Shown here in pieces: positions 16,239 through 31,181 of a DNA stretch of 64,000 nucleotides (position 1 is its first letter; every line of letters begins with the position of its first letter). The DNA is from an uncultured Candidatus Saccharibacteria bacterium (lineage in GTDB: Bacteria > Patescibacteriota > Dojkabacteria > J137), in assembly GCA_965230975.1 (NCBI GenBank), contig OZ246402.1, positions 573,009 to 637,008 of the forward strand, given 5' to 3'. The notes below the pieces were generated by a model. The model was not told the DNA's origin. It saw nothing but the letters and a program-made list of their open reading frames with translations, and made no database searches. The position numbers and the translations under genes were made by a program.

Positions 16239-16262
16239 TTAAATAAGTCATAATATATATTT

Positions 16263-16442
16263 ATGAACTCAGAAGCAACAATGCCAACTATGCCCTCCAT
16301 GCCAAATACAGAAACCAAATTGGATACTAAACCTAAGACTTCGACAAATGCTATTGAATCTTCAATTAATGCAGTTGGCGATTTTGTATTGGATACTTTT
16401 AAAGAAAGTTTATCTAGTCTTGGGAAATTAATTTTCGGCTAG
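16263..16442 (+). CDS. small ORF (59 aa) below the track threshold, coupled to the downstream gene
   Basis: ATG at 16263; stop TAG 2 nt before the ATG of the 16444 ORF; codon usage looks typical for the window. Confidence 0.3.
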   Translation: MNSEATMPTMPSMPNTETKLDTKPKTSTNAIESSINAVGDFVLDTFKESLSSLGKLIFG

Positions 16443-16443
16443 T

Positions 16444-16848: not shown

Positions 16849-17080
16849 TTCTATTAATTTCATCTACTTCTGCTTGTATTCTTCTTTTATAATCTTCTAA
16901 CAAGCTGTCCATTTTATTCTTCAATTCTACGCTATAGTTAGTAACCAAGGTATCTATATTATTTCTTTTAGATCTAACTCTGTCTTTTCTATTGCTATCA
17001 ATAATGCCGTTACTCAAGAAGTTTGTAATAGCTGTATCTACAGGTTGTATTATGGGCGAAAAATCAGGATTCATATTCAA
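16835..17080 (-). CDS. hypothetical small protein
   Basis: ORF only; convergent overlap with the previous gene. Confidence 0.35.
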   Translation of the reverse strand: MNMNPDFSPIIQPVDTAITNFLSNGIIDSNRKDRVRSKRNNIDTLVTNYSVELKNKMDSLLEDYKRRIQAEVDEINRIMQS

Positions 17081-17153
17081 TTTATTAACTAATATTGAAT
17101 ATACACCTTAGAGTTCACTAAATAACCAAATAGGTGTTAAGAAAGTGTAAATA

Positions 17154-17504
17154 CTATTTTGACAATGTTCGTCTGCTCACAAAAAGTAAATCAACAAAAT
17201 CATAAAGAGAGCCTACTGACTCGATATGTTGATCTACAATATACTTATCTAATAAGTTAAATTGAGCTTCGCCTACTCGTGTTCTTGCAGTATATAGAAT
17301 ATTGCTAATAGTAGAATCAGGAGTCACTAGGTATTGGTTTTCATGGAAGATTACATTATCCATAATTATTCTTAACGCTGTCAAAGCGCCTTCTTCTAAA
17401 TCGTTTATACTTTGGTCTATTGTAATTCCAAAGTGTTGTGCTAAAAGTACATGAACAAGTTGAGGTTCTGTAATTAAATTTAATGTAACATCTTTCCAAC
17501 TCAT
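17154..17504 (-). CDS. hypothetical protein
   Basis: ORF only. Confidence 0.4.
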   Translation of the reverse strand: MSWKDVTLNLITEPQLVHVLLAQHFGITIDQSINDLEEGALTALRIIMDNVIFHENQYLVTPDSTISNILYTARTRVGEAQFNLLDKYIVDQHIESVGSLYDFVDLLFVSRRTLSK

Positions 17505-17580
17505 ATTATTTATTTAACTGCCAAGATTATAACAAATTTGTACTTAATTGATATATTTGTAAATATTCCTAAATAGTATA

Positions 17581-18570
17581 CTAGCCAGATGTAATAATCT
17601 CATCTTCTATTTCGTCTATCTGATAAGCATCGTAACCCTTTTTTCTTAACCAGCTTGTATAAGTTTTCGTAAAACCATGAGTTGTAAAAATTGTTTGCGC
17701 CCCACATTCTTTAACAGCGTAATTAAGCCCATTCCAGTCGGCATGGTCTGAAAGAACAAACTTTTTATCTATATTTTTTGGATTAAATAATTTCATCCAC
17801 CCAGATGCCTCTGCCAAAGAATATTTTGATCTGTCAATAATATTTGCAGAAACAAAATTATGAGGTGCTAATAATAAATCTCCGGGCTTAACTTTTGATG
17901 CTTCAAACAAAGAATAACTTGGAAGTTTTACACCACTTGATTCTATTGCCTGATTCATTTCAAAGACAGATTTATATGTAAATATTCTGCCGTCAATTTG
18001 TAAGTTCTTTAAAATTCTTTGAGCTTTACCAAGAGAGTAGCAAAGAACTACACTAAAAAGCCCCAGTGATTGATTAAACTTTATCCAGTTGGACATATCT
18101 TTAAAAATATCTGCTTGTGAATCCCATCTATAAATTGGTTGAGCAAAGGTAGTTTCTGTAACAAAATTGTCGCATTTAATTGGTACGAAAGATTGAGAAA
18201 TATTGTCGTTTTCAATTTTATAATCACCTGTAATTACCCAGCTCTCGTGCTTAGTTTGAAGCTTAATTTGAGCAGAACCAACAACATGCCCCGATGGGAA
18301 AAACGTAACTTTTACACCATTAATATTTAAAACCTCACCGTACTCAACACCCATTACATTAGTTTTTTTACCTAATCTGGTTTTTAAGATTGGAATATTT
18401 TTATAGTGCGAAAGATATTGTGTATGGCCACTTATAGCATGATCTGAATGTGCGTGGGTAATTAAAGCTTTTTTTACCTTTCGCTTAGGGTCTATGTAAA
18501 AATCACCTTGAGGGCAATAAAAACCTTTATTTGTAAATTGTATTAGCGAATTTTTTTTCATGCTTTCCAA
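17581..18570 (-). CDS. MBL-fold (beta-CASP-like) exonuclease resembling the ligase-associated DNA damage response exonuclease
   Basis: N-terminus KGFYCPQGDFYIDP, HxHxDH (THAHSDHA), C-terminal DHAD motif; about 330 aa like that family. Confidence 0.5.
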   Translation of the reverse strand: MESMKKNSLIQFTNKGFYCPQGDFYIDPKRKVKKALITHAHSDHAISGHTQYLSHYKNIPILKTRLGKKTNVMGVEYGEVLNINGVKVTFFPSGHVVGSAQIKLQTKHESWVITGDYKIENDNISQSFVPIKCDNFVTETTFAQPIYRWDSQADIFKDMSNWIKFNQSLGLFSVVLCYSLGKAQRILKNLQIDGRIFTYKSVFEMNQAIESSGVKLPSYSLFEASKVKPGDLLLAPHNFVSANIIDRSKYSLAEASGWMKLFNPKNIDKKFVLSDHADWNGLNYAVKECGAQTIFTTHGFTKTYTSWLRKKGYDAYQIDEIEDEIITSG

Positions 18571-18621
18571 TAATTATTTGGTAAGCTATATTATCACTAG
18601 TATACTTATTTACTGCTAAAT

Positions 18622-19083
18622 ATGAATATTACTTGCGGGCTATTGATTTATAAAATAATTCCTAAATTACAAGTATTTTTGGTTCACCCTGGTGGCCCGT
18701 TTTGGAGCAAAAAAGATATTGGGGTTTGGAGCATTCCTAAAGGGGTAGCAGAAATTGGTGAATCTTTTGAAAGTGCTGCAATTAGAGAATTTCAAGAAGA
18801 AACAGGTTTTGATTTAGTTGTAGATTTAAAAGATCTATTGCCTTTAGGTGAGCAAAAATTACATGTTAGCAAGCTTATGCATTGCTTTGCTTTAGAAAAA
18901 GATATAGGTAATATAAAAGTTAAAAGTAACTTGTTTGAAATGGAGTGGCCATTTAAAAGTGGTAAATTTGAAAAATTTTCTGAAACAGATAAGGGTGAGT
19001 ATTTTGAGATTGAAGTAGCAAAAGAAAAGTTGAATCCAAAACAAGTAGTATTTTTAGATCGGTTAGAAAAATTATTAAATTAA
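18622..19083 (+). CDS. NUDIX hydrolase
   Basis: Canonical Nudix box GVAEIGESFESAAIREFQEETGF. Confidence 0.75.
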   Translation: MNITCGLLIYKIIPKLQVFLVHPGGPFWSKKDIGVWSIPKGVAEIGESFESAAIREFQEETGFDLVVDLKDLLPLGEQKLHVSKLMHCFALEKDIGNIKVKSNLFEMEWPFKSGKFEKFSETDKGEYFEIEVAKEKLNPKQVVFLDRLEKLLN

Positions 19084-19096
19084 AATATTATAAAAA

Positions 19097-19124
19097 ACCC
19101 CTCAATAAAAAGTTTATTGAGGGG
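19097..19124. terminator. Hairpin between convergent genes (putative terminator)
   Basis: cccctcaataaa-aagt-ttattgagggg with flanking T-rich tracts on both strands. Confidence 0.55.
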
Positions 19125-19144
19125 TTAACTTTTGTTTATAAAAG

Positions 19145-20401
19145 CTATTTTCTAGAATTAGATGAATAAGCTACATAACCTCCAGCTGCAAGTAATATAA
19201 CTAATAAGATTAATAAAATAATCCACCAGTTAATTGCCTGTGCAATGTTGTTATTATAAACCGCAAAGTTTACGCTATCGTTTCCGTTAGAGCTTATTAA
19301 TTCAAATTCAAAAGTATCGTTTCCACCTAGTGTTACATTAGATGATAAGTCACTTTTTTCAATTCTTATAAAATATTTTCCTGGGCATAACTCTGTTTCC
19401 CAGAATCCAATTCTATTAGATTTTACTTTTACAACTTCTACCTCTTTTTCTTCTTGGTCTTTAACAAATATTGTTAAATTAATATCTTGAATTCCCTCTT
19501 CTGCATTCTCTTTTACATTGTTTCTATTTATATCTATAAATACAAAACCTGAAGCCTTTGATCTTTCTAAACAATTAGATGCACTAGTATTTTCTTGTGT
19601 ATCTTGATTAGTATTATTTTCGGTTTGGTTATTTGTATTTTGTGTGTTTGTAGTTTGAGCAGAGTCAATTCTTGGAGCTTGTCCTGAGACAACGATTAAA
19701 ACTGATGCTGTTGCAACATCACCATTTTGGTCAGTAACATTTACTCCGCAAAAGTATTGTCCTGCGGAAAGTGTAATATTATTGCTATTTGCAAGTTCAT
19801 CTGATGTGGTTTGTAAACCGTTGCAAACACCGGTGTATTGATATGTGTAAGGAGTATTACCAGGATTGTTAATATGTGCAAAAACTTTAAATGTTGTATT
19901 TTCGTTTACGTAGATTGTGCCACTGTCGTTAGTTACAGGTGGTACATTACCATATAAAACTACTGTTGGTATAAGGTTGTTTACAACAGGAGGTTCTGGT
20001 TGTGGAGCAGGTGCAGGTTCTATTGTAAAAGTACCATAAGCAAATGCAGATGACTCACTCCAATCCCATACCATTACCATACATTCATGAGTACCAACTT
20101 CTGTTAAAACCAAAGTATCTGTCTCACTAGTTTCTCCGGTTTCGCATAACCAATCGTATGTTAATTCGCCTTCTGGGTATGCATTTTGAACAACCGCAGT
20201 TAATGTGATTGTGCTTGGATAAGTAACAGTTGGTGAAGGAGTAGCAATAATCCCTACACTTAATTCGGGAACTTCCGGTTCGCCTTCGTATTCTTGTGCT
20301 TTAACTACATTTGATTTGAATGTAATTAACAAAGCAAATAGAACCCCAAGGAGTATTGGAAGCTTGAATGCTAGAGCCTTTAAAGAAGACTTACTAAACA
20401 T
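19145..20401 (-). CDS. membrane-anchored surface protein with PKD/Ig-like repeats
   Basis: N-terminal signal peptide, two repeated Cys-containing beta-rich modules, T/N-rich linker, C-terminal TM anchor followed by basic residues. Confidence 0.5.
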   Translation of the reverse strand: MFSKSSLKALAFKLPILLGVLFALLITFKSNVVKAQEYEGEPEVPELSVGIIATPSPTVTYPSTITLTAVVQNAYPEGELTYDWLCETGETSETDTLVLTEVGTHECMVMVWDWSESSAFAYGTFTIEPAPAPQPEPPVVNNLIPTVVLYGNVPPVTNDSGTIYVNENTTFKVFAHINNPGNTPYTYQYTGVCNGLQTTSDELANSNNITLSAGQYFCGVNVTDQNGDVATASVLIVVSGQAPRIDSAQTTNTQNTNNQTENNTNQDTQENTSASNCLERSKASGFVFIDINRNNVKENAEEGIQDINLTIFVKDQEEKEVEVVKVKSNRIGFWETELCPGKYFIRIEKSDLSSNVTLGGNDTFEFELISSNGNDSVNFAVYNNNIAQAINWWIILLILLVILLAAGGYVAYSSNSRK

Positions 20402-20507
20402 AGTAGCTTGTATGTAACAAATATAATAAAGCGATTCTACTATGCAAAGTTATTTTTTCGCAATAATCCTATAGCACGGGAATATAATTACCTGTTAAAA
20501 AGCTTTG

Positions 20508-21677
20508 CTAGCTTACATATAGCAATATACTTTTTAAGTAATCTACTTCGTTGTGGTTAATATTTATTGGATGGTCAAAAGCCAATCTTTGTTTATGTAT
20601 TATTTTTATATCTCTTTTTGCGTCTCTAGCTGCTCTTAAAACGATCTCTTCGTGCATTTCGCGGCTTACATGGTAAGAGCAAGAACATGTTAGTAAAAAG
20701 CTTCCTGCTGGCATTTTGCTTAATGCTAATCTGTTAATTTCTCCATAACCTCGTTTTGCACCTTCTATATCTTCTTTCTTTTTTGCAAATGCTGGTGGGT
20801 CTAAGATTATAAATGAATATTGTAGTGGGTCGTTTCGCAAAAATTCAAATACGTCTTGTGCTATAAATTTGTGATTGTTGCCTGTGTAGCCGTTTAATTC
20901 AAAGTTTTTGCTTGCGTAATCTACTGCGTCTGGGTCTATGTCTATAGATGTTGTTGTTTTTGCTCCATTTCTTGCTGCATATAAAGAGAATCCTCCCGTG
21001 TAGCTAAAGCAGTTTAGTAGGTCTTGGCCTTTAGAAAATTCTCCTACTAAGTGTCGCATTTCTCTCATGTCTAAGAATAGTCCGGTTTTTTGTGCTTTTA
21101 AAAAGTCTATTGTAAATTTTATTTTGTTTTCTAAGACTTCTGTGTCGCCGTTTAATTCTCCGTATAGTATGCCTTCAAAGTTTTCTAGTCCGTCTTTTCT
21201 TCTGGCAGACATGTTTGATTTTTCATATATGCATTTTGGGTTGTAGATTGCTTTTAGTTCTTCTACTACAATTGGTTTTAATTGTTCCATTCCAATTGTT
21301 GCTATTTGGATTACTATTACGTCTCCATATTTATCTACTATTAGTCCTGGTATAAAGTCTCCTTCTCCGTTTATTACACGGTATGTGTTTGTTTCTTTTT
21401 CGTTAAAGATTTTTTTTCGCATTTCTGCGGCTTTTCTTATGTTTTGTTTTAGTGATTCTATTGGGTCTTGGGTGCTAAAGTTTAGCATTCTGATTGCGAT
21501 TACAGTGTCGTTGTTGTAGTAGCCGTGTCCGAGTATTTCGTTGTTGCCACTTACGACTTGGACTATTTGTCCGTTTTGAGCGTTGGGTTTTCGGGCAATT
21601 GCTCCGTTAAATATCCAGTGATGCCTGTGTTTTATTGGCATTTCTTTACCTTGTTGCAAAAAGACTTTTTGATACAT
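20508..21677 (-). CDS. class I SAM-dependent rRNA methyltransferase (RlmI/RlmK-like)
   Basis: N-terminal PUA-like region, SAM-MTase core with DPPAF motif (ILDPPAFAKKK). Confidence 0.7.
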   Translation of the reverse strand: MYQKVFLQQGKEMPIKHRHHWIFNGAIARKPNAQNGQIVQVVSGNNEILGHGYYNNDTVIAIRMLNFSTQDPIESLKQNIRKAAEMRKKIFNEKETNTYRVINGEGDFIPGLIVDKYGDVIVIQIATIGMEQLKPIVVEELKAIYNPKCIYEKSNMSARRKDGLENFEGILYGELNGDTEVLENKIKFTIDFLKAQKTGLFLDMREMRHLVGEFSKGQDLLNCFSYTGGFSLYAARNGAKTTTSIDIDPDAVDYASKNFELNGYTGNNHKFIAQDVFEFLRNDPLQYSFIILDPPAFAKKKEDIEGAKRGYGEINRLALSKMPAGSFLLTCSCSYHVSREMHEEIVLRAARDAKRDIKIIHKQRLAFDHPININHNEVDYLKSILLYVS

Positions 21678-21827
21678 ACAGAAACCTATAAACGATAAAA
21701 TTGTGAGCTTAAAGCCTGGTGTATTTTAAGATAAATAAAGTATAAATGCTATAGACACTGATATGTGGCGACAAACGGCTATCCAAAATGCTATAATGCA
21801 AGCAGTATAAATTAATATAGAATTATT

Positions 21828-23486
21828 ATGCAGGATGACCCTAAAGAAAAAGGAGAAATAAGTATAGAAATGAAAATAGCATATTTCATGTCTATTTATG
21901 GCTATATAAGACAGATGGTAGCAGAAGATAATATAGTAAATGACTTCTCGTTGGATAGTGTAGCTAAAAGAATGAATTTATTGAGTATATTTAACCATTT
22001 GAGAGTGTTTATAACTAAACATAATGAATATGCAAATGAACCTGGTTTAATAGAAAAAAATTTGGAGTCTATAGGTATTACTTATTCGGCAGATAAGTCA
22101 AGGATAGAAACTATAGCTTTCGACAGAAAATCTATGAATCCTCAAGCCAGAGCTTTAATCGAATATTATGATGACAATAGCATTAGCTCAATAAGTCTAG
22201 TGTTTAATAAGGTTCATACTGCAATAGTTACTCCAGTTTATTCAGAAGAAGAGGAAATACAATCTTTTAAAGTAGAAATGTCGACAGACTATGATAGTGC
22301 CATAGGGCCTAGTATATACCCAGAAATTACAATACCGGCAGGCTCACTAGAAGAATTAATATCGTATTTTTTCCCAAGTGATGATAAAGAAGCACGAAAT
22401 TTAAAAATTGAAGAATTAAAGCAGAATAAAGAACTATTTTTAGAATTTAATGTTGATACAATAGAATCTTACAAACGAGGAATTATTTTTAATACATGGG
22501 AGGATTTAAGAGAAGCTCTAATTATTTATGGAGAGGGCAAGTTTGTAAAAAGAGGTGCTAAAAATAAATTGGACTTAGAAAATGAAGCTTTTATTGATGC
22601 CACACCACCTGAATCAGATGTGAGAGAACTAACACAAACATTTTTATCGGCAATAAGGTCTACTTCTACCGACAGCGTAAGTGATTTTGTGGATGCATAT
22701 TTCCCATTTAAAGCGAATTTTCAACCTGGCGAGGTTTATGAGCAATACTTTGATTATGGGGAAATGGGTCTTTGGTCTAACAACTTTTTTAAATCAACTA
22801 TAAAAATTACCAAGACTGAAGATGGCAGATATATTTTAGAGGCTTGGGCTGGCTCTTCTGGGGATTCTTTAGAGAAAAGATTAGCAGAATCTCTTTTGAC
22901 AGAGAGAGTTGCCCTAGATTCTACAGTTAGAGTATATTTTCCTACAATTGATAATTATTTTTGGGTTGGTGGGTTAGATAAAATTCAAACCGAGTTGGCA
23001 AAACATGGTTATGTTACACCATATCAGTTTACACATCTTATTTATACAGAAGGTATTCCTTTGGGTTTGGTTCATTCAAAAGAAAAAAATACACTTGAAT
23101 ATAATTACGTATATGATTCTAATAAAGTAATAATACCTATTGTTCGAGAAGGTCTTCCGTTTAATATAACACTTGAATTAGTTATGCCAAGAGAATGTAG
23201 GGCTGGTTATACTCTAGAACAGTCTGAAGAAGAAGGTGAAAAAAGTTATAAACCCGAGGTATATGATAACTGGACTATATCAACAGATGGAACAGATATA
23301 AATGGGACAATAATTAAATCTGGTAAGGGAGAAGTTCATTTACCGTACATTAAAATTCGAGTCTTCCCAAATATTAGGGATTTTCTTGACCAAGAAGGTG
23401 ACCCCTATTCTCAAGAAGTAGCAAGGGCACAAAGACGTATTGTGAAAGAGGTCGCTACAATAATTGCAGGAGTCAAACTTAATTAA
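21828..23486 (+). CDS. hypothetical protein (552 aa)
   Basis: Long ORF with typical local codon usage; no recognised motif. Confidence 0.5.
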   Translation: MQDDPKEKGEISIEMKIAYFMSIYGYIRQMVAEDNIVNDFSLDSVAKRMNLLSIFNHLRVFITKHNEYANEPGLIEKNLESIGITYSADKSRIETIAFDRKSMNPQARALIEYYDDNSISSISLVFNKVHTAIVTPVYSEEEEIQSFKVEMSTDYDSAIGPSIYPEITIPAGSLEELISYFFPSDDKEARNLKIEELKQNKELFLEFNVDTIESYKRGIIFNTWEDLREALIIYGEGKFVKRGAKNKLDLENEAFIDATPPESDVRELTQTFLSAIRSTSTDSVSDFVDAYFPFKANFQPGEVYEQYFDYGEMGLWSNNFFKSTIKITKTEDGRYILEAWAGSSGDSLEKRLAESLLTERVALDSTVRVYFPTIDNYFWVGGLDKIQTELAKHGYVTPYQFTHLIYTEGIPLGLVHSKEKNTLEYNYVYDSNKVIIPIVREGLPFNITLELVMPRECRAGYTLEQSEEEGEKSYKPEVYDNWTISTDGTDINGTIIKSGKGEVHLPYIKIRVFPNIRDFLDQEGDPYSQEVARAQRRIVKEVATIIAGVKLN

Positions 23487-23573
23487 ATTCCTTTTTGATT
23501 TTAATAGATTAACTGATTTTTATCTATCCTTAATTCTTGTTTCTTAGTAAAATCCTTTGGTTTACCAAAGTTT

Positions 23574-24371
23574 ATGTCAAGAAATCTTCGCTTTGGTGAT
23601 GGGTTTGTTATTTCTCATGTTAGCCCTGAATACAGGGCAGATATTTTTCACTCTTTAAATTCCGGTTTTATTAATAAAGATTCTTTGTTAGAGCTTCAAT
23701 CTAAGGGTCTTACCCGAATGCTTTTGACTTTGCTTGTTGTTATGGTTTTTGTTCTTTCAAGATCCGATGTTTTGGCAAGGTTTGGTGGAGATGTTCATTT
23801 GGCTGTTCAAAGTATTTTAAGTATTCAACCTTTAACTTACAGGAATCATGTTACTAATATTAGGTCTGTTTTGGGTGTTGGTTCTACTTTTGCTTTGTTT
23901 GTTTATTCTTTTTTTAGGTTGGTTAATGTTAAAGAGGGTGGTTTTCAAGATATTGATTTTGCTACATTTCAGGCTAGTCGTATTAAGATTTTGTTTGATG
24001 ATTTTAATGTTTCAGATTCTTTGGTTAGAAGTTACCTTTTGTTGGCTTTGCGTTTTGAGTGGGTTAATTGGGATAGGTATTCGGCTTTGGTAGAAGAGTT
24101 GGAGTTGGATTTTTTTGAGGAGGTTTTGTTGTGGGTTGTGCTTATTTTGCCTAATGATGAGGAGTATTGTAATTACAGGTTTATTGCTGGTGTTTTGAAT
24201 AAGTCTGAATGGTTTGTTAGTAAAAGGGTAGATGAGTTTTATAAGAAGATGAATAGGCTGGTACCGGGTAAAACCCCAGAAACAAGATCCAGCCCACTAA
24301 TGCTATTTACGGCACTACTACATTATGGAGTGTATACAGGGAATTACTTGAAGGGGGTAGGAGAAGGGTGA
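23574..24371 (+). CDS. ORF with atypical composition: extreme GT skew and alien codon usage; hypothetical protein or hypermutated gene
   Basis: Strong third-position T periodicity (GTT, GGT, TTT, GAT). Leu mostly TTG and Arg mostly AGG, unlike the rest of the window (TTA, AGA). Plus strand is about 8% C against about 22% G (hand count of a sample). Confidence 0.35.
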   Translation: MSRNLRFGDGFVISHVSPEYRADIFHSLNSGFINKDSLLELQSKGLTRMLLTLLVVMVFVLSRSDVLARFGGDVHLAVQSILSIQPLTYRNHVTNIRSVLGVGSTFALFVYSFFRLVNVKEGGFQDIDFATFQASRIKILFDDFNVSDSLVRSYLLLALRFEWVNWDRYSALVEELELDFFEEVLLWVVLILPNDEEYCNYRFIAGVLNKSEWFVSKRVDEFYKKMNRLVPGKTPETRSSPLMLFTALLHYGVYTGNYLKGVGEG

Positions 24372-24450
24372 TTTTTATTTCCTCTAAAGTGTCTGGAAAA
24401 ATCTTTCAAATCAATTTTATTAAATATGCAGACGGTGTCTGCAGAATTAG

Positions 24451-24524
24451 AAAATTTCAAACTGTGGGATAATTTCAAAATTCTTCAGTACAAATTTCGA
24501 AATTGTAAGGTTTTTGTAAGATTT
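24451..24524. repeat. 74-bp conserved promoter-proximal element, copy 2
   Basis: Aligns with 7261-7334. Preceded by the 7-bp inverted repeat tgcagac-ggt-gtctgca (24427-24443). Confidence 0.6.
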
Positions 24525-24526
24525 GA

Positions 24527-25573
24527 TTGGTAATATTAAGGTATATGAATACTGTGAATAATTATAACCTTGTTCTGAAAAGTATTAAGGAAAAAATAAT
24601 TGAATCCCAAAGTCGTGCTCTTAGTTCTGTTAATCGTATATTAATAGATCTATACTGGTATATAGGCAAGCTAATCGTCGAAAAACAAAGTAAAGAAGTG
24701 TGGGGTAAGTCCATTGTAGAGCAGTTATCAAAAGACTTGCAATCTGAATTCCCAGGAATAAAAGGGTTCTCGGTTAGAAATCTTTGGAATATGAGAAATT
24801 ATTATTTAAGATATAAAGATAATACAATTCTGCAGACACTGTCTGCAGAAATTTCATGGAGTAGTAATATACTGCTATTGAATAAATGTAGTAACGATAA
24901 GGAGTTGGAATTTTATTTGCAAATGACAAGATCGAATTCTTGGTCTGTAAGGGATTTGGAGTATAGACTTAGGAGTAATGAGTTTGATAATTTTATTCAG
25001 CATCAGAGCAACTTTTCTAGTACGCTTAACTTTAAAGCAAGTAGTTCGATCAAACTTAAGGACGAATATAATTTAGACTTCTTAGGTATAAGGGAAGACT
25101 TTGCAGAAAGAGATTTGGAAAGTCTTATTGTTAAGAAAATTGACGCTTTTATAAAAGAATTTGATTGCAATTTAATGTTTTCTGGTAGGCAAGTCAAACT
25201 AGAGTTTGATGAAGAAGAATTCTTTATAGATCTTCTTTTTTACCATAAACTTTTAAGGTCATATATCGTTATAGAGCTTAAAACAACTCGATTTAAACCT
25301 GAATTTGCCGGAAAGATGTCCTTCTATCTCTCGGCAGTCGAATCAAAATTGAATCAATCCGGTTACGATAACCCTGCAATCGGAATAATTTTATGCAAAG
25401 AAAAGAATAGGAATGTAGTTGATACCACTCTTAAATTTATTACTAGACCTATTGGCGTCGCAACTTTCTCTGTTTATGAAAGAAATACTCCTCTACCATC
25501 AGATATTTCAAAGTATCTACCATTAACCGAAGAGGTAGAAAATAAGCTACTTAAATTGGCAGATATTTATTAA
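24527..25573 (+). CDS. DUF1016/YhcG-like PD-(D/E)XK nuclease family protein
   Basis: C-terminal core FIDLLFYHKLLRSYIVIELKTTRFKPEFAGKMSFYL matches the YhcG pattern. An internal near-perfect palindrome ctgcagaca-c-tgtctgcag lies at 24830-24848. Confidence 0.65.
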   Translation: MVILRYMNTVNNYNLVLKSIKEKIIESQSRALSSVNRILIDLYWYIGKLIVEKQSKEVWGKSIVEQLSKDLQSEFPGIKGFSVRNLWNMRNYYLRYKDNTILQTLSAEISWSSNILLLNKCSNDKELEFYLQMTRSNSWSVRDLEYRLRSNEFDNFIQHQSNFSSTLNFKASSSIKLKDEYNLDFLGIREDFAERDLESLIVKKIDAFIKEFDCNLMFSGRQVKLEFDEEEFFIDLLFYHKLLRSYIVIELKTTRFKPEFAGKMSFYLSAVESKLNQSGYDNPAIGIILCKEKNRNVVDTTLKFITRPIGVATFSVYERNTPLPSDISKYLPLTEEVENKLLKLADIY

Positions 25574-26829
25574 TTCACCCTCAACAAGTGTTCCCAGTTA
25601 GTTGTATATTGAGGGCTGCACATCTCTTTTTTATTCCTCCACGGCTGCTTAAGCCCACTAGACGCATACTTAACAACCTCTCTACCATAAGTCGCATTCA
25701 AGTTATCAAACTGCTTCATCAAACTCATCTTCTTATTATAAGTATCATCACTCTCAAACAAATCTAGCGGAGCCTGAGAATCCGGAACCAAACCAAGCAA
25801 CATAATCGTAGCCTTCTTATACCTAAACCCAGGCTTAAAAATAGAATGCAAAGCAGCAAAACCCGTCTTAATCAAATCCGGATTATAAGCAGTAGGGCAC
25901 TTGGTAGCCACAATCGCATAGTTAAAATACTGAGGCAAATCTTTACGGTGCATATTAGTCTTAATAGACACATACACAAAACTAGCCAAAGAACCTTGCT
26001 CGCGTAATTTTTCTGACCCACGAGTAATATAACTAGAAACCGCCTCTTCTAACCCTTCTATAGTATAAACAGGTTTACCAAACGTACGGGAACTTAAAAT
26101 ATTCTTTCTAGGCGCTTTGGTTTCTAGGTTCAAACAAGGAATCTCTTTTAACTCTGTAGCGATACGTAATTCGGTAACACTAAAGTTCTTTCTAAGCCAC
26201 ATTTCGTTACAATTTTTAAACTGCAAAGCGTTGTAAATACCCAATTCGTTTAGCTTATAGCTTGTCTTTCTACCTACACCCCAAATCTCTTGTACGGGAA
26301 GATCTTTAAGAAATGCGTCCTTATCTTGGACTGAATCCCAGTAAAACACACCACTCTTTGTTTTCTTTTTTGCTACATGATTACAGATTTTTGCTAAAAC
26401 TTTTGTTGGTGCAATACCAACACTGACTGGGATTCCGGTGGATTTTAGAATATCTGTTCTCATTTTGATACCAAAATCAATATAGTCTTTTTTTATATCC
26501 AAACTATCCATTGATAAAAAACTTTCATCAATAGAGTATATTTCCATTTGTGGTACATACGAATTTAGTATACGCATAACTCTATGGGACATATCTCCAT
26601 ACAATTGAAAGTTGGCAGAGAACACCTGAACATTATGAAGTTCTACCATGTTACGTAATTCATGTATTGGAGCACCCATTGGGAGCCCAATATCTTTTGC
26701 TTCTTGAGAACGGGCAATAATGCAACCATCATTATTAGACAAAACAACAATAGGTTTGCCTATTAATTTAGGATTAAAAACTCTTTCACAAGATGCATAA
26801 AAGTTGTTACAGTCTACTAAAGCGTACAT
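25570..26829 (-). CDS. Y-family DNA polymerase (UmuC/DinB-like)
   Basis: N-terminus MYALVDCNNFYASCERVFNP (hVDxDxFFASxE signature); 419 aa. Confidence 0.85.
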   Translation of the reverse strand: MYALVDCNNFYASCERVFNPKLIGKPIVVLSNNDGCIIARSQEAKDIGLPMGAPIHELRNMVELHNVQVFSANFQLYGDMSHRVMRILNSYVPQMEIYSIDESFLSMDSLDIKKDYIDFGIKMRTDILKSTGIPVSVGIAPTKVLAKICNHVAKKKTKSGVFYWDSVQDKDAFLKDLPVQEIWGVGRKTSYKLNELGIYNALQFKNCNEMWLRKNFSVTELRIATELKEIPCLNLETKAPRKNILSSRTFGKPVYTIEGLEEAVSSYITRGSEKLREQGSLASFVYVSIKTNMHRKDLPQYFNYAIVATKCPTAYNPDLIKTGFAALHSIFKPGFRYKKATIMLLGLVPDSQAPLDLFESDDTYNKKMSLMKQFDNLNATYGREVVKYASSGLKQPWRNKKEMCSPQYTTNWEHLLRVN

Positions 26830-27142
26830 GTTTTTTAAGTGCTATAATCCCTATTGTACAAAGTGTATACCAATAAATTTAATAAGTATTTGCATGAGTT
26901 TTTTACTTGGGATAGATCCAACAAAGTTTAGGAATAGATTAAATACAGAAAAATCATTACCAGAAAGTTTTAACTTTGATGGTTTAGAAAATAGAGCATA
27001 TAAAGCATTGTTTGTATTGGTTGATAAACTTAAAACCTTCAAATAAGATTTACCTTTAGAAGAGCGAAGTGATGGATTAAGGCTTAATGGTAAATTTGCC
27101 AACTATAGAGCTATTCATTTCTTAATTCAACAATATTTACAG

Positions 27143-27439
27143 TTGTATATGTATGTTACTCAATTTCAAGAAAAAACCCAGGCTATATTAATTACCTCCT
27201 TTGAACCAGATTATATAGATATAAGAAATGCAATTAGCTTTATTGACTACACTCATATACCAACTAAAAGTAGAGATTCAGAATTTTATAATCACACAGT
27301 TTCTATTCAATATTTAATATTCTTAGCAGTAATGCTTTCTATGGGAGTAGATCTAAATGCTTTAAGAGAGAATCTTGTAAGCGTTATAGAAATTTTAGAG
27401 AACCCTGAAAAAAGTCCTAATATCATAGAAGAACCCTAG
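27143..27439 (+). CDS. hypothetical protein
   Basis: ORF only. Confidence 0.4.
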   Translation: MYMYVTQFQEKTQAILITSFEPDYIDIRNAISFIDYTHIPTKSRDSEFYNHTVSIQYLIFLAVMLSMGVDLNALRENLVSVIEILENPEKSPNIIEEP

Positions 27440-27446
27440 TTTCTAA

Positions 27447-27911
27447 TCAAGCCTCTTCTGTACTAATTATAGGCATCAATTGCAGTTGATTATTTTCTAA
27501 TCTAATATCTCCAGAAAAGTATAATTCCCCACTTGGCGATATTATGCCGATGTAGTGAGGTGCACAGCGAATCCCAGAATATCCACCATCAACATAAAAT
27601 ACTACAAATAAATTATTACTTTTAGTTTTGGCATAATTTTGCAGAAGTTTAGTAGCCATGTTAATCGTTACTCCTTGAGGTAAATCAATAATCTTTAAGG
27701 GGTTATCGAATGTCCCATCTCCTCTTACCGTAATATTAAAGCCACCATCTCTATCGTATAAAGAATATACTTCTTTATGTGCATACATTTCGTTTGCTAG
27801 TTTAATTGTTTCTATTGGGTCTATTTCAACTAATGGTGTATCTAATTCAACGAGTGTTCTTCGTAGGTATTCTTCTTCATATATAGTCATACCTGGAATG
27901 GAATTTGACAT
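27447..27911 (-). CDS. hypothetical protein
   Basis: ORF only. Confidence 0.45.
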   Translation of the reverse strand: MSNSIPGMTIYEEEYLRRTLVELDTPLVEIDPIETIKLANEMYAHKEVYSLYDRDGGFNITVRGDGTFDNPLKIIDLPQGVTINMATKLLQNYAKTKSNNLFVVFYVDGGYSGIRCAPHYIGIISPSGELYFSGDIRLENNQLQLMPIISTEEA

Positions 27912-28007
27912 AAACTAAATTTAAAAAATAATGTGGTGATTATAGTTAAGGTTTGAGAAATTGTTAGTGAAGTTGACTTCACTTCATCTATTCGCTAGAC
28001 TTTTGAT

Positions 28008-28679
28008 ATGTTTGACCTCCACTACATTCAACTAAGAACAATAGAAGAACTTTTATTCAAAAAAGAGGCTACTTTTACACAGTTAAATGCTTTAAATTTA
28101 ACTAACGATCACTTTACCTTTCATATAAAGCAATTAATAAAACGAGGTCTTATAGAAAAGGTGGATGATTTATACAAACTTACATCTTCGGGTTTAGAAT
28201 TAGCAGGGCGATTAAATACAAATAAAGGGACTATATATAATCAAGCCAAACTGAGCATATTAGTAGGTATATTTAGAGAAAACAATGGAACCTTAGAGGT
28301 CCTACTATCTAAAAGAAAACGAGACCAATCAATTGGAAAAATTGCTTGGCATACTACAAAAGTAGATATTGGAGAACTATTAAAAGATTCAGCTAATAGA
28401 TGTTTAAAAAACGAGACCGGATTAACTGGAAACCCTGAATTTGCAGGAGTAACTCATGTAATTAGAAAAGATGAGAACAATTATGAAATAGATGTGGTAT
28501 TAGTAGATTTTCTTGTATTAAACCCAACTGGAGAATTAATTACAGAAACTCCAGATCAAACTAACTTTTGGATTAGCTATGAAGACGCTTTAAAGTTAGA
28601 CAACACACTTGTTGGAATGAAAGAAAAGCTTGAAGCTTTCAAGAATAGACAAATCACTTTTAACGAATACATAAACTAA
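28008..28679 (+). CDS. winged-helix DNA-binding domain protein with a degenerate Nudix-like C-terminal domain
   Basis: N-terminal wHTH-like segment (TFTQLNALNLTNDHFTFHIKQLIKRGLIEK); C-terminal GELLKDSANRCLKNETGL resembles a degenerate Nudix box. Confidence 0.35.
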   Translation: MFDLHYIQLRTIEELLFKKEATFTQLNALNLTNDHFTFHIKQLIKRGLIEKVDDLYKLTSSGLELAGRLNTNKGTIYNQAKLSILVGIFRENNGTLEVLLSKRKRDQSIGKIAWHTTKVDIGELLKDSANRCLKNETGLTGNPEFAGVTHVIRKDENNYEIDVVLVDFLVLNPTGELITETPDQTNFWISYEDALKLDNTLVGMKEKLEAFKNRQITFNEYIN

Positions 28680-29062
28680 GTTGCGTGAATAACATAAGTT
28701 ACAACACCCCAAATTTGATTCCCTTCCGCTAATTTTATTGGATGGTAGTTTGGGTTTTCTGGGCATAAAAACTCTCCATTTGCGCTTTTAACATACCTCT
28801 TTACCGTAAACTCATTATCTATAACACCAATAACAATATCCCTGTTTTTAGGCTCTTTAGATTTATCTACAATAAGAATATCATTAGGAAAAATCCCAGC
28901 TTTAATCATAGAATCTCCAGAAACCTTTACAAGAAAAGTAGCAGCCGGGTGGGGAATTAAATATTCGTTTAAATCTAAAGACTTATCTAAAAAGTCATCT
29001 GCAGGTGATGGAAATCCGGCTTTAATTGTTGTTAAAAATAACGGTAAAGTTACCATACACAC
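28676..29062 (-). CDS. S24 peptidase, UmuD/LexA C-terminal domain-like (no DNA-binding domain)
   Basis: Ser-Lys dyad context SGDSM...KRY, 128 aa. Confidence 0.75.
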   Translation of the reverse strand: MCMVTLPLFLTTIKAGFPSPADDFLDKSLDLNEYLIPHPAATFLVKVSGDSMIKAGIFPNDILIVDKSKEPKNRDIVIGVIDNEFTVKRYVKSANGEFLCPENPNYHPIKLAEGNQIWGVVTYVIHAT

Positions 29063-29101
29063 ACAATAAGTTAGGGGATACCATTTTTCGCAAGAGTTTT
29101 G

Positions 29102-30313
29102 CTAATCTTTAATATACTTTCTACCTTTAAGTTCTTCTGGAAAGTGCTCTTGATCCACCTTAGCATCTTTAAAGTCGTGAGCATATTTGTAGCCTTTACC
29201 ATAACCAAGCTCTTTCATAAGCTTTGTAGGCGCGTTTCTGATGTGTAATGGAACAGGTAAAGAACCATGTTTATAAACATCTTCTTTTGCGTGGCTAGAA
29301 GCCATATAAGCAGAGTTATCTTTAGGTGCTTTTGCCAAGTAAATTGCCAACTGACACAATGCAACATCGCATTCCGGCCTGCCAAGTTTTTGGCATGTTT
29401 CAAAAATAGTGTTAGCCAAAATAACAGCTTGTGGGTCTGCATTACCAATATCTTCAGATGCAAATCTAAGTAATCGTCTTGCAATGTAAAGAGGATCATC
29501 ACCTGCTTCTAGCATTCTAGTAATCCAATACACAGAGGCATTTGGGTCTGAATCTCTCATGGATTTATGCACAGCAGAAATTATATTGTAATGGTCTTCA
29601 CCTTTTCTTTCGTATTGTAAAAAGTTTTCTACCGTCTTTTTTAAAATATCTTCTGTAATCTTATTATCAACAGAAGCCATCAAAGCGCTTTCTAAAATGT
29701 TAGAAGCACTTCTTAAATCTCCATCACTAGCTTTTGCTATAAATTCTAAAACCTTTTTGCCGGCTTTTACTTCTAACCCTTCTTCTTTAACTTTACTTAT
29801 AAGCTTCTCTAGATAGTCTTGTACCTCTGTAACCGAATGCTTGTTTAGGGTGAATACCCTGCACCTAGAAAGTAAAGCTGGTATTAAACTAAAAGATGGA
29901 TTTTCTGTAGTGGCACCAATTAATGTAATAATTCCTTTTTCTACATAAGGGAGCAGAGCGTCTTGTTGAGATTTATTCCACCTGTGGATTTCGTCTAAAA
30001 ATAATATTGTCCTACTAGGAATTAATTCCATGTTACCGTTCTTTTGGTGAGCCATTGCCTTAACAATAATCTCTTTTAGCTTGTCTTTACCACTCATTAC
30101 TGCAGATAGTTTGTGAAAGTCTGCATGTATTTCTTTAGAGATTATGTAGGCTAGAGTAGTTTTGCCTGTCCCGGGTGGACCCCAAAATATTAAAGAGGGT
30201 AAGTTTTTTGTTTCTATAAATCTTCGAATAGGCATTCCTGGCCCGACTAAATGTTTTTGACCAATGTAGTCATCCAGTTTTGAAGGTCTATATTTTGATG
30301 CAATTGGTTCCAT
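29102..30313 (-). CDS. rarA: replication-associated recombination protein A (AAA+ ATPase)
   Basis: YRPSKLDDYIGQKHL..., Walker A GPPGTGKTT, sensor motifs, MgsA C-terminal domain. Confidence 0.9.
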   Translation of the reverse strand: MEPIASKYRPSKLDDYIGQKHLVGPGMPIRRFIETKNLPSLIFWGPPGTGKTTLAYIISKEIHADFHKLSAVMSGKDKLKEIIVKAMAHQKNGNMELIPSRTILFLDEIHRWNKSQQDALLPYVEKGIITLIGATTENPSFSLIPALLSRCRVFTLNKHSVTEVQDYLEKLISKVKEEGLEVKAGKKVLEFIAKASDGDLRSASNILESALMASVDNKITEDILKKTVENFLQYERKGEDHYNIISAVHKSMRDSDPNASVYWITRMLEAGDDPLYIARRLLRFASEDIGNADPQAVILANTIFETCQKLGRPECDVALCQLAIYLAKAPKDNSAYMASSHAKEDVYKHGSLPVPLHIRNAPTKLMKELGYGKGYKYAHDFKDAKVDQEHFPEELKGRKYIKD

Positions 30314-30368
30314 GAGTTATTAATTCAAAAGTATACTAAGTATAGCTCTAGTATACCGATTGATGATA

Positions 30369-31181
30369 TTAATTTAAGAAGTCTTTAATTGTAAATTGGT
30401 TAGGTTTTGTTTTTTCTAAATCTTCCCACTCAATTGGCAATGAAATAGGCGCACCTTCTCTTGCCCTTGTAGAATAGGCTGCAACGGTTGTTGCTCCTCT
30501 GGAATTTCTTAAATAGTCTATAAATATCTTACCCTTGCGTTGGTCTTTAGTCACAACTGTGGTGTATAAATCGTTTTGTAATGCTAGTTTGTCGGCTATT
30601 TCTTTTGCATAGGCATGAACATAGTCCCAATTCTTTTTTTCTCTCATTGGTGCGATTATATGAAACCCTTTTCCACCTGATGTTTTTAAAGTTGGCTTAA
30701 AACCTCTAGATTCTAACTCTGCTTTTATATCTCGGGCACACTTGTAAACATGTTTAAAATCTAAATCTTCGTCTGGGTCTAAATCAAAAATCATTCTATC
30801 TGGATGTTCATAGTCAGAAAGCCGGCTATTTGTTGTATGAAATTCTAATACGCCAAGATTTAATAGGTAAAGAATGTCATCAATTTGATCTATTTCAATA
30901 TAATAATCAGTATGTCCATCCTTCTCTTTTATTTTTACGCGTTCTATATACTCAGGAAACGATTCTGATGGGTGTTTTTGAACAAATTGAATATCTCCAC
31001 CTAGGCCGTGAGGGCTTCTTATTAATGTTATTGGTCTGTCTTTAAGCTCTTTTAATATTAGTTTTTCTACCTTTAAATAGTAATTTACGAGTTCTAGCTT
31101 GGTTATTTTAGATTTAGGGAAAAGTATTTTACTTGGATGTGTTATTTTTATACTTCTGATTGTTATAAAATCATTGTCCAT
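30369..31181 (-). CDS. stand-alone LigD-type polymerase (primase-polymerase) domain protein
   Basis: ITHPSKILFP..TKLELVNYY..RPITLIRSPHG..FDLDPDEDLDF..KTSGGKGFHI..IDYLRNSRGATTVAAYSTRAREGAPIS matches the NHEJ LigD PolDom pattern. Confidence 0.75.
   Translation of the reverse strand: MDNDFITIRSIKITHPSKILFPKSKITKLELVNYYLKVEKLILKELKDRPITLIRSPHGLGGDIQFVQKHPSESFPEYIERVKIKEKDGHTDYYIEIDQIDDILYLLNLGVLEFHTTNSRLSDYEHPDRMIFDLDPDEDLDFKHVYKCARDIKAELESRGFKPTLKTSGGKGFHIIAPMREKKNWDYVHAYAKEIADKLALQNDLYTTVVTKDQRKGKIFIDYLRNSRGATTVAAYSTRAREGAPISLPIEWEDLEKTKPNQFTIKDFLN

Follow-up and report, generated by a model that had tools for sequence, protein, structure and literature searches.

Strand-polar tracts of silent-site skew beside the cassette slots of a strain-variable island in a Dojkabacteria genome

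Why is one open reading frame in a Dojkabacteria (CPR) genome so rich in T and G on its coding strand? Across our 64-kb window (the whole stretch of DNA that we analysed), the mean composition is T.35, G.162, C.151, and A.337. The plus strand of the 265-codon ORF at 23574-24371 has T.407, G.247, C.112, and A.234, and the core of the ORF (23574-24260) has T.44, G.243, C.099, and A.218; the last ~110-130 nt (24234/24261-24371) are of normal composition. A first-pass annotation of this DNA put T at about 50%, C at under 10%, and G at over 20%. T does reach.48-.62 in 60-nt sub-windows, but not in the core or in the ORF as a whole; C is below 10% in the core, but not in the entire ORF; and the figure for G was right. 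The G+T minus A+C skew here (0.368) is the maximum over all of the 690-nt windows that we scanned, or ~4 standard deviations out (mean.023, sd.084).

We also considered the third codon positions by themselves. We defined keto3 as the G+T minus A+C skew at third positions, and we compared the ORF to its own protein recoded with the codon usage of the window. Observed keto3 was 0.56, vs. 0.04 ± 0.055 for the recoded sequences (z = 9.5; for codons 21-220, z = 10.5). The frequencies at third positions are.53 for T,.25 for G,.17 for A, and.05 for C, which bears out the NNT periodicity that was first seen by eye. The codon preferences were reported correctly as well: Leu is encoded by TTG in 21 of 38 cases and Arg by AGG in 9 of 17 cases, while other genes favour TTA and AGA. 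It was also claimed that C is depleted and G is not. C is indeed low (.10-.11), but its frequency at third positions is inside the range for other genes in the window (.03-.25), and it is A that is chiefly depleted (.17 at third positions, vs..23-.55 in other genes). About half of the base shift is due to the choice of silent codons and about half to a shift in amino acids towards Leu, Phe, Val, and Arg. Overall, the bias of this ORF is real, yet it was overstated.

The ORF (P0001) is a genuine protein-coding gene under purifying selection between strains: in three comparisons, the ratio of synonymous to replacement codon changes was 21:5, 24:9, and 8:5, and the changes are mostly at third positions. 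The second open frame within it, which had been taken for a side effect of the composition, does exist, and it is probably a by-product of A depletion. The sites that vary between strains give no clear sign of dual coding or of extra constraint: there are 14 in the 246 nt of this frame (vs. ~8% elsewhere), so they are not clearly rarer there, and they lie on its second codon positions. There is no ORF on the minus strand of the segment, and we found no internal repeats, iterons, or triplet-repeat origin in it. The only known RNA family in the window is a tRNA at 314-385.

P0001 is a fast-evolving orphan, and its product is predicted to be all-helical. It has no matches in Pfam, PHROG (best E = 0.13), or NCBIfam. 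An exhaustive HMM search of 1.84e9 representative proteins found just one other member of the family (P0006, 37% identity), and word-indexed searches of 5.8e9 proteins found P0001 and P0006 only. We also considered an origin from a single-stranded DNA phage or a prophage, but there are no phage-type homologues or neighbours, whether by comparison to PHROGs, by tblastn against plasmids and phages (50,697 phage records), or in a scan of IMG/VR. AlphaFold2 models of the product have mean pLDDT of just 46 and 49, and Foldseek against the PDB gave nothing under E = 2. A profile search against PDB sequences hinted weakly at a RepA_N replication initiator (E = 0.013 over 58 residues), but we rejected this lead because hhalign against a six-member RepA_N alignment gave a probability of 1.9%; Pfam gave no match. 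The “HTH-like” stretch near the C terminus was read by eye and is supported by no library. The palindrome just before the start codon (Table 1) is possibly an operator.

Table 1. Features of the island and its flanks (positions within the window)
Feature	Coordinates	Strand	Remarks
Methyltransferase gene (PUA/SAM, RlmI-like)	20508..21677	-	bears tract 1, strongest at 20688-21645; z = -12.6
Strain-variable island	21729..25569		~3.8 kb, between the methyltransferase gene and umuC; empty site in L045
Slot A (upstream)	21729 to ~23509/23536		junctions in L004 and L005
552-aa cassette gene	21828..23486	+	in slot A; normal composition
Palindrome CTTTGGT-TT-ACCAAAG	23555..23570		directly 5' of the ATG of P0001; retained in L004 and L005
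P0001	23574..24371	+	265-aa orphan; T/G-rich; sole gene present in all island-bearing strains
Tract 2	23636..24263	+	in P0001; third positions T.5-.75, G.15-.47, A ~.05-.2, C 0-.07
81-aa ORF	23848..24093	+	second open frame inside P0001
Unskewed 3' end of P0001	24234..24371	+	codes for the best-conserved portion of the product
Slot B (downstream)	~24356-25573		junctions in L004 and L005
DUF1016/YhcG PD-(D/E)XK nuclease gene	24527..25573	+	cassette in slot B; normal composition
umuC	25570..26829	-	Y-family polymerase; tract 3 in its 3' part (25600-26047)

P0001 lies within a strain-variable island (Table 1). As expected for a horizontally acquired island, its gene content varies across strains and a related genome has a vacant site. 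In that genome (L045), the stop codon of umuC is followed, after 87 nt, by the start of the methyltransferase gene, with no island and no skew, and the left junction of the empty site (...GTGTATTTTA) is identical to that at 21728. P0001 is the one constant gene of the island, and the cassettes on either side of it are swapped between strains. In slot A, the 552-aa gene is absent from L005, and L004 and L029 have a 144/107-aa gene on the opposite strand instead. In slot B, L005 has an HTH-Mrr-TPR-PIN gene and L029 has a 297-aa gene; the similarity of L005 to our window stops at 24355, which is the left border of this slot. From the methyltransferase gene through the 144/107-aa gene and the spacer, L004 and L029 are 85-98% similar; some 70 nt before the start of P0001, their similarity falls abruptly to 40-65%. 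Within the methyltransferase gene, L004 and L029 resemble each other more in the half near the island than in the other half. The island has no integrase or recombinase domain from Pfam and no direct repeats at its borders, and scans of the region for promoters and terminators were uninformative. The DUF1016 nuclease gene that was reported downstream of P0001 is there, and the repeat beside it is real: a palindrome at 24427-24448 has a second copy at 24826-24847. A 79-nt element downstream of P0001 also has a copy at 7256-7334.

The skew is not limited to P0001. There are just three tracts of such skew in the 64 kb, all within 5.4 kb; each is 0.45-1.1 kb long, with a third-position skew of 0.8-0.95. 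The coding strand of the methyltransferase gene has A.55, C.25, T.15, and G.05 at third positions, so its plus strand is G+T-rich. Within P0001, the skew climbs from +0.4 to +0.9 in the 5' to 3' direction and drops away after ~24233. In tract 3, the plus-strand third positions are A.5-.6, C.3-.45, and T 0-.05, so it is the minus strand that is G+T-rich. Relative to recoded proteins, the magnitude of z is 9.5-12.6 for the three tracts, vs. 1.1-2.5 for the neighbouring cassettes and the 5' part of umuC (for umuC, 10.3 for codons 261-400 vs. 1.1 for codons 1-260, which are normal).

The classes of codons that are preferred in the tracts are exact strand complements across oppositely oriented genes. 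Among codons ending in A or G, the counts (A:G) are 66:2 in the methyltransferase core, 12:38 in the P0001 core, and 8:30 in the umuC tract. For codons ending in T or C, the counts (T:C) are 20:49, 46:3, and 34:4, respectively. Among four-fold degenerate codons, the counts are A64 C16 T8 G1 in the methyltransferase core, T55 A8 G2 C2 in the P0001 core, and T33 G16 A2 C2 in the umuC tract. In other words, the skew is a property of the DNA strand: A and C were lost from silent sites on one strand regardless of the orientation of the gene. In every tract, the 3' end of the G+T-rich strand faces a cassette slot, and the skew peaks near the slot and fades away from it. The tracts in P0001 and umuC end 45-130 nt short of the stop codons. 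The skew returns to ~0 within 0.5-1.1 kb, and the mean third-position T-A and G-C skews for the window are ~0.

A skew switch at a replication origin or terminus, which would come with skew of constant sign over the adjoining replichores and with dif or origin features at the switch, does not fit: the skew is back at ~0 so quickly, and there is no dif-like site near the island (the only match, with three mismatches, is at 42514). Nor is there one continuous plus-strand skew that runs from the methyltransferase gene through P0001, because L004 and L029 have the 144/107-aa gene in between, and it is unskewed. The codon usage of the methyltransferase gene might suggest high expression, but the other genes in the window with high A at third positions are not ribosomal or obviously highly expressed, and Ile in its core is mostly ATA (17/25). 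We found no other tracts in ~130 kb of Dojkabacteria/Patescibacteria-type loci that were fetched with the methyltransferase (genome_contigs), nor in 20 methyltransferase loci from metagenome_contigs. Among all the loci that we fetched, the single tract elsewhere was on a Chloroflexia contig (L024).

Comparison to the genome with the empty site shows that the skew accompanies the presence of the island. Orthologues of the methyltransferase gene from other Dojkabacteria and from L045 (78% identical) are unskewed. Codons 261-400 of umuC have T.36, G.14, A.35, and C.15 at third positions in L045, vs. T.52, G.36, A.07, and C.04 in our window. Going from L045 to our window, silent sites in this tract have changed in one direction (14 A>G, 8 A>T, 6 T>G, 6 C>T, and 2 C>G, vs. 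just 1 G>A and 1 G>T), while the silent changes outside the tract are symmetric. A is lost from the tracts more than C is. The tracts are common to our window's lineage and to the related lineage L029, and P0006 has the same skew, although at that locus it is restricted to the gene body. Since the skew is shared with a homologue that is just 37% identical and with a related lineage, it is old. Recent substitutions erode it: among polarised changes, 18 are away from G/T and 7 are towards G/T in P0001, and in the methyltransferase gene the counts are 33 and 14. So, we do not see an active mutational drive. We also checked for C>T changes in strain variants, which were expected to be confined to the segment; instead, the polarised singletons in P0001 are 0 C>T and 4 T>C, and the tracts reach into neighbouring genes. 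Divergence at third positions is not raised in the tracts, but this is a weak test at compositional equilibrium.

The first-pass annotation offered two origins for the composition of P0001. The first, a foreign gene, is right in that the island is absent from L045 and that P0001 is an orphan. However, the native flanking genes are equally skewed, with a mirror image in the oppositely oriented methyltransferase gene, so a donor's codon dialect cannot explain the composition; the other cassettes in the island are ordinary. The second, strand-specific C-to-T hypermutation, is right in that the cause acts on one strand of the DNA, but more A than C is lost, the changes include A>T and T>G, and the skew is old. 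That annotation named a conserved homologue of like composition as evidence against its readings; P0006 is one, and it tells against recent hypermutation. Thus, the composition reflects neither foreign codon usage nor fresh C-to-T hypermutation.

We tentatively favour, with a little less than even confidence, a strand-polar process that acts on DNA at the borders of the island and that made the three tracts, one of them within a real island gene. The process is probably recurrent single-strandedness. The G+T-rich strand would have been single-stranded repeatedly near the slots, whether because breaks at the slots were resected and left it as a 3' tail or because forks stalled there while it served as the lagging-strand template. 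A and C on the exposed strand would have been damaged (by deamination or depurination), and the damage would have been fixed wherever selection permitted. The process would have been active before the sampled lineages diverged, and the present-day skew would be eroding or else held only by selection. Several observations do not fit well. The mirror tract that is expected to the right of slot A is missing from both the 5' part of P0001 and the 144/107-aa gene. Two other strain-variable slots (16227-17601 and 26830-28670) lack clear tracts; umuD, beside the latter insertion, has a possible, weak fourth tract in the form of a mid-gene bump in skew (0.53 vs. 0.07-0.2 in L029), but it is off the border. 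Simple deamination does not produce T>G or A>T changes, and divergence is not elevated. The recent substitutions go against the skew, and a similar picture could come from selection for G+T. Finally, the ends of the tracts are marked by no shared motif (a 9-mer, AGCCCACTA, was unsupported) and by no site for a nuclease or for dif. It is also conceivable, but improbable, that the tracts were left over evolutionary time by single-stranded DNA that recurred at the borders of a cassette-exchange site and that P0001 encodes a new type of DNA-processing or recombination protein that makes or manages the intermediates. If true, this would be a cassette platform of a kind not yet described from CPR bacteria.

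Alternatively, selection at the DNA level might keep these strands G+T-rich. For example, G+T-rich 3' strands beside the slots might aid RecA loading or pairing and hence cassette exchange. Both of the deep alleles of P0001 keep the skew even though their silent sites are near saturation, the rare or recent changes oppose the skew (as mutation-selection balance predicts), third-position divergence in the methyltransferase gene is lowish (0.05-0.23), and the polarity of the tracts presumably agrees with that of Chi-type signals. But we found no Chi-like or other shared oligomer that is enriched on the G+T-rich strands, selection for exchangeability would be second-order and weak, the other variable slots lack tracts, and we know of no precedent in CPR bacteria. 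We consider this explanation unlikely.

We are more doubtful that the island was imported in one block with the neighbouring stretches of the methyltransferase gene and umuC, by homologous recombination from a donor lineage or replicon with very strong strand asymmetry, and that the inherited skew is now ameliorating. The island was acquired, the sharp breaks in similarity imply that recombination does occur in this region, and both the greater similarity of L004 and L029 on the island side of the methyltransferase gene and the erosion of the skew would fit. Yet the polarity flips between P0001 and umuC even though umuC and the methyltransferase gene are co-oriented, so the donor would need a skew switch at exactly that position. 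Also, the skew is graded instead of step-like, the cassettes within the block are unskewed, the Dojkabacteria/Patescibacteria-type and metagenome loci include no skewed relative (the one tract is from Chloroflexia), and P0001 has no homologue in the phage, plasmid, or viral collections.

Damage that is associated with transcription or R-loops, with deamination of the non-template strand in heavily or convergently transcribed DNA, could cover P0001 and the 3' end of umuC. In these two genes, it is the coding (non-template) strand that is G+T-rich, the skew increases towards their convergent 3' ends, and the skew at the P0006 locus is limited to the gene body. But the template strand of the methyltransferase gene is the G+T-rich one, which would require a dominant antisense transcript, and none is supported. 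The tracts in P0001 and umuC also halt before the stop codons, and to our knowledge, the skew far exceeds known transcription skews. We judge that this explanation is probably wrong.

Selection on translation is already disfavoured, and we think that it is very unlikely. In a minimal tRNA set, codons ending in T or G are read by wobble and codons ending in A or C by Watson-Crick pairing, so NNT and NNG codons might slow the synthesis of P0001 and the C terminus of UmuC while NNA and NNC codons speed up the methyltransferase. Low expression is plausible for two of the three tract genes. But ATA, which the methyltransferase prefers for Ile, is not a typical optimal codon; orthologues of the methyltransferase gene are unskewed, including the copy in L045; in umuC, the effect is confined to the last ~140 codons; none of the other genes in the window is similar; and the skew tracks the presence of the island, not the gene. 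Finally, recent C-to-T hypermutation of P0001 alone by a single-strand cytosine deaminase would account for low C without low G on the plus strand, but C at third positions is in the ordinary range while A is depleted, P0001 is under purifying selection, no deaminase or reverse transcriptase is annotated within ±10 kb, and the idea is refuted by the substitution spectrum (C>T 0 vs. T>C 4) and by a conserved homologue with the same composition at 37% identity, which leaves it next to no chance.

Strand skews are normally weak and on the scale of the chromosome. Here, a near-saturating skew reaches no further than a few hundred bases from an insertion site in either direction, with opposite polarity on the two sides and with a natural control (the empty site in L045) that is unskewed. 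If the tracts record repeated exposure of single strands, then the composition of silent sites could locate and orient active hotspots of recombination or breakage, even in uncultured genomes, where experiments are impossible. More broadly, local mutation pressure could drive an unconstrained protein so far towards Leu, Phe, and Val that it seems foreign. Calls of horizontal transfer that are based on composition should be treated with caution.

How does this locus compare to known systems? As in diversity-generating retroelements, A is lost from the coding strand of a fast-diverging gene, but there is no reverse transcriptase annotated within ±10 kb and no pair of template and variable repeats, the tracts are longer by a factor of 5-10, and the losses extend to C and to silent sites. 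Single-stranded DNA phages have T-rich, C-poor, NNT codon usage, which has been attributed to deamination of single-stranded DNA (PMC1087484). P0001 shares the NNT-rich coding strand and the low C of their genes, but it lacks a phage homologue or context, G is enriched too, and its native flanks are skewed. Like other genomic or defence islands between core genes, this one has an empty site, turnover of cassettes, nuclease-type cargo, and deep allelic divergence; unlike the usual ones, it has no integrase and no direct repeats at its borders. A strand-polar compositional footprint in the flanks is not a described feature of islands, and we did not find a description of such local skew tracts in the literature.

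In kataegis-type clusters, which are known from yeast and cancers, strand-coordinated mutations arise beside resected double-strand breaks. Like our tracts, these clusters are on a kilobase scale and on one strand, their polarity switches across the breakpoint, and the 3'-ended strand is affected. But they are single somatic events that are dominated by C>T/G changes, while the tracts accumulated at silent sites during evolution, lost more A than C, and come with no deaminase that we could find. In replication-associated skew, leading strands have an excess of G+T at silent sites (PMC5291525, PMC4613354). There too, the same bases are gained and lost on one strand, mainly at third positions and regardless of gene orientation, and the classical explanation of the skew is damage to DNA while it is transiently single-stranded. 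The tracts at this island differ in that they are local (0.45-1.1 kb) and several-fold stronger, they flip polarity across a 3.8-kb island, and neither the rest of the window nor L045 shows their skew.

The G+T skew of the orphan gene is real. T makes up.407 of the 265-aa ORF (A.234, C.112, G.247) and.44 of its core at 23574-24260 (G.243, C.099, A.218), while the window's mean composition is T.35, G.162, C.151, and A.337. Among the window's 690-nt stretches, the orphan gene has the strongest G+T skew, about 4 standard deviations off the mean. The first-pass annotation had put T at about 50% and stressed the depletion of C, and both were overstated: at third codon positions (T.53, G.25, A.17, C.05), C is inside the range of the other genes, and the main deficit is in A (.17, versus.23-.55 in the others). 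It was right about codon choice, as Leu is TTG in 21 of 38 cases and Arg is AGG in 9 of 17, versus TTA and AGA elsewhere. G-ending codons account for 69% of the two-fold R-ending codons, versus 21% in reference genes, and at four-fold sites T and A have shares of.62 and.22, versus.42 each. The skew at third codon positions (G+T minus A+C, or keto3) is 0.56, versus 0.04 ± 0.055 expected when the window's codon usage is applied to this protein (z = 9.5). Amino-acid composition accounts for about half of the base shift (the protein is enriched in Leu, Phe, Val, and Arg and depleted in Lys, Ile, Thr, and Gln), and silent-codon choice is the other half. The final 110-130 nt of the ORF have normal composition.

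The gene itself looks ordinary and is an orphan. Its five strain variants (96-98% amino-acid identity) differ mainly at third positions, with synonymous to replacement changes of 21:5, 24:9, and 8:5, and this variation shows that the gene is real. The protein has no family match in Pfam, PHROG, or NCBIfam. An exhaustive HMM search that covered 1.84 billion representative proteins turned up just one further cluster, P0006 (269 aa; 37% full-length identity). Phage, plasmid, and viral collections contained no relative. The AF2 model is all-helical, with low confidence, and a fold search with it returned nothing. A weak profile match to RepA_N (E = 0.013) was dropped, given an hhalign probability of 1.9%.

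Reading third positions on the plus strand, we found three skewed tracts. Plus-strand keto3 goes from +0.3 at the 3' end of the methyltransferase gene to +0.8 beside the island (tract 1); climbs from +0.4 to +0.9 in the orphan gene and collapses past ~24233 (tract 2); and is -0.85 to -0.95 in the end of umuC, reaching 0 by ~26100 (tract 3). The codon classes of the tracts are exact strand complements. Tracts 1, 2, and 3 depart from a recoding by the window's codon usage with z = -12.6, +10.5, and +10.3, respectively, versus 1.2 for the upstream 552-aa gene, 2.5 for DUF1016, and 1.1 for the 5' part of umuC. An ORF-free scan of the 64 kb found these three tracts only. With the methyltransferase as query, ~130 kb of loci of the Dojkabacteria/Patescibacteria type were retrieved from genome_contigs, and the scan found no tract in them, none in 20 methyltransferase loci from metagenome_contigs, and one in a Chloroflexia contig (L024). 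In each tract, the 3' end of the G+T-rich strand is directed at a cassette slot and the skew declines away from the slot, with 45-130 nt right at the border being unskewed.

Features of the locus and of related contigs (window coordinates unless a contig is named)
Feature	Position	Strand	Remark
RlmI-like PUA/SAM methyltransferase gene	20508-21677	-	One flank of orphan gene; tract 1, plus-strand third positions T.5-.7, G.2-.5
Orphan gene	23574-24371	+	Tract 2, plus-strand third positions T.5-.75, G.15-.47
umuC	25570-26829	-	Other flank; tract 3 (final ~150 codons), plus-strand third positions A.5-.6, C.3-.45, T 0-.05
Inserted island	21729-25569
DUF1016/YhcG cassette	24545-25573; L004 10972-12000
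1092-aa gene	L005 1853-5131	-	Downstream slot; HTH_3, Mrr_cat, TPR, PIN-TPR-GreABC
144/107-aa orphan gene	L004 9437-9871; L029 3930-4253; L027 2-259	- (L004)
DNA-repair cluster	13578-31181
Replaced segment	16227-17601; L004 4456-5261		Downstream of 3-methyladenine glycosylase gene
Insertion between umuC and umuD	26830-28670		~1.8 kb; small ORFs, 154-aa gene, HTH-NUDIX gene
Split umuC	L029 675-2038		ORFs of 146 and 297 aa
umuD bump	28796-28943	-
Small genes	46221-46814; 52159-52575	-
79-nt element	7256-7334; 24448-24526
Palindrome TGCAGAC-NN-GTCTGCA	24427-24448; 24826-24847		Upstream of and within DUF1016

Codon counts in the three tracts
Class	Methyltransferase core	Orphan gene core	umuC tract
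R-ending (A:G)	66:2	12:38	8:30
Y-ending (T:C)	20:49	46:3	34:4
Four-fold sites	A64 C16 T8 G1	T55 A8 G2 C2	T33 G16 A2 C2
Ile	ATA 17/25	ATT 8/8	ATT 6/6

Elsewhere, third-position G+T on the coding strand shows a mild bump in the middle of umuD (0.53, versus 0.07-0.2 in the orthologue from the relative L029), which may be a fourth, weak tract or a chance fluctuation. Two small genes have A3 of about.53-.55 and T3 of about.2; one has no Pfam match and the other has only a sub-threshold match to DUF417. Their T-A skew equals that of the tracts in size, but without the G-C component.

Cassettes have been swapped on both sides of the orphan gene. Instead of the upstream 552-aa gene, strain contig L004 has an opposite-strand 144-aa gene, and L005 lacks any; instead of the downstream DUF1016 nuclease, L005 has a 1092-aa HTH-Mrr-TPR-PIN gene, which looks like a defence-type cassette, and L029 has a 297-aa gene. 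In a more distant relative, L045 (amino-acid identity of 75% for UmuC and 78% for the methyltransferase), just 87 nt lie between the umuC stop and the methyltransferase start, and the left junction is identical to the sequence at 21728. This empty site and the common left junction show that the intervening segment is an inserted island, of which the T-rich gene is the sole constant member. The best relatives of the methyltransferase (44-61% identity) are in MAGs of Candidatus Dojkabacteria and other Patescibacteria. The contig from which the window comes is 1.19 Mb long.

L029 is close to the window strain (96% identity for the methyltransferase, 92% for UmuC, and 93% for UmuD), yet P0006 occupies the position of the orphan gene. 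L004 and L029 are 85-98% similar across the methyltransferase gene, the 144/107-aa gene, and the spacer, and then, some 70 nt before the orphan gene's ATG, similarity drops sharply to 40-65%. The orphan gene and P0006 diverge alike at all three codon positions, and transitions are not dominant. The two forms are deep alleles that recombination has exchanged.

At umuC codons 261-400, third positions are T.36, G.14, A.35, and C.15 in L045, versus T.52, G.36, A.07, and C.04 in the window. Going from L045 to the window, silent changes in this tract run almost entirely one way (A>G 14, A>T 8, T>G 6, C>T 6, and C>G 2, with just one G>A and one G>T in the counter-direction); in the remainder of umuC they are symmetric. 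Methyltransferase codons 1-86 show the complementary pattern. The methyltransferase's keto3 is -0.59 here, versus -0.19 to +0.15 in orthologues from eleven other genomes, whose positions 1 and 2 are nearly as here. In these comparisons, the skew accompanies the island. L029 also has all three tracts, so they are older than its split. Third-position divergence inside the tracts is not raised, which is a weak test at compositional equilibrium.

The process behind the skew is specific to one DNA strand, is linked to the island, and falls off with distance. It depleted A and C on the strand that points its 3' end at a slot, and its effects were filtered by purifying selection: conserved proteins changed at silent sites only, while the weakly constrained orphan protein also moved to G/T-rich codons. 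We suggest that this strand was repeatedly single-stranded, either as the 3' tail that remains when breaks at the slots are resected (the cassettes there encode nucleases) or as the template for lagging-strand synthesis where forks stall at the borders. Deamination leads to C>T and A>G, and A>T and G>T result when A is inserted after depurination. Together, these would yield most of the observed spectrum; T>G changes fall outside it. Counting against a single-strand model, the mirror tract that it predicts to the right of the upstream slot was not found, two other variable slots have no clear tracts, and no marking site or motif was found at the tract ends.

Polarised recent changes in the methyltransferase gene (plus strand, outgroup L029) are 33 G/T>A/C versus 14 A/C>G/T, and singletons in the orphan gene (five strains) are 18 versus 7. 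These changes run counter to the skew, so a drive from C to T, or towards G/T in general, is not operating at present, and the skew is now either being lost or maintained by selection in the face of mutation pressure. One rival explanation is that selection keeps these strands G+T-rich. Another, transcription-associated damage, fits two tracts, but the strand is wrong for the methyltransferase gene. Import from a strongly skewed donor is a poor match to the polarity flip and the gradients; the orphan gene's island membership agrees with the earlier idea of a foreign gene, but its composition is not a donor's dialect, as its neighbours share the skew. Codon-level (translational) selection is argued against because the pattern follows the DNA strand and not the coding strand, and also because the methyltransferase gene uses ATA, usually a disfavoured codon, and umuC is affected only in part. 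Recent C>T hypermutation confined to the gene, also proposed in the first-pass annotation, is refuted by the singletons (C>T 0, T>C 4) and by the skew of the neighbours; a strand-specific cause at the DNA level stands, but it is old, not C-specific, not confined to the orphan gene, and not active now.

DNA-repair genes are abundant around the orphan gene, and are unusually concentrated in a cluster with a RadA-like ATPase, an AAG-type glycosylase, two NUDIX genes, umuC, umuD, RarA/MgsA, and a LigD primase-polymerase. The window strain and L004 are identical over the 1029 nt of the DUF1016/YhcG cassette, while 6-13% of third positions differ in the flanking genes; this cassette was probably exchanged very recently between strains. 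The 144/107-aa gene is missing from the window strain, and forms only two clusters in 5.8e9 proteins. In L004 and L029 it is divergent to the T-rich gene, with a conserved spacer, and it may be a functional partner. In L029, umuC and umuD are adjacent; the segment between them in the window is another strain-variable insertion. (The split of umuC in L029 may reflect a frameshift or an assembly error, or the gene may be a pseudogene there.) Another segment is replaced in L004.

The two copies of a 79-nt element (85% identical) lie upstream of an ABC-transporter ATPase gene and of DUF1016. AATTTC(N)AAATT half-palindromes recur in the element, which may be a promoter/operator common to the two genes or else a small mobile element. 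Within DUF1016, the TGCAGAC palindrome encodes LQTLSAE; the upstream copy reads MQTVSAE and may be a remnant of another DUF1016 gene.

Overall, the main result is three island-anchored skew tracts that switch polarity, with L045 as a natural empty-site control.
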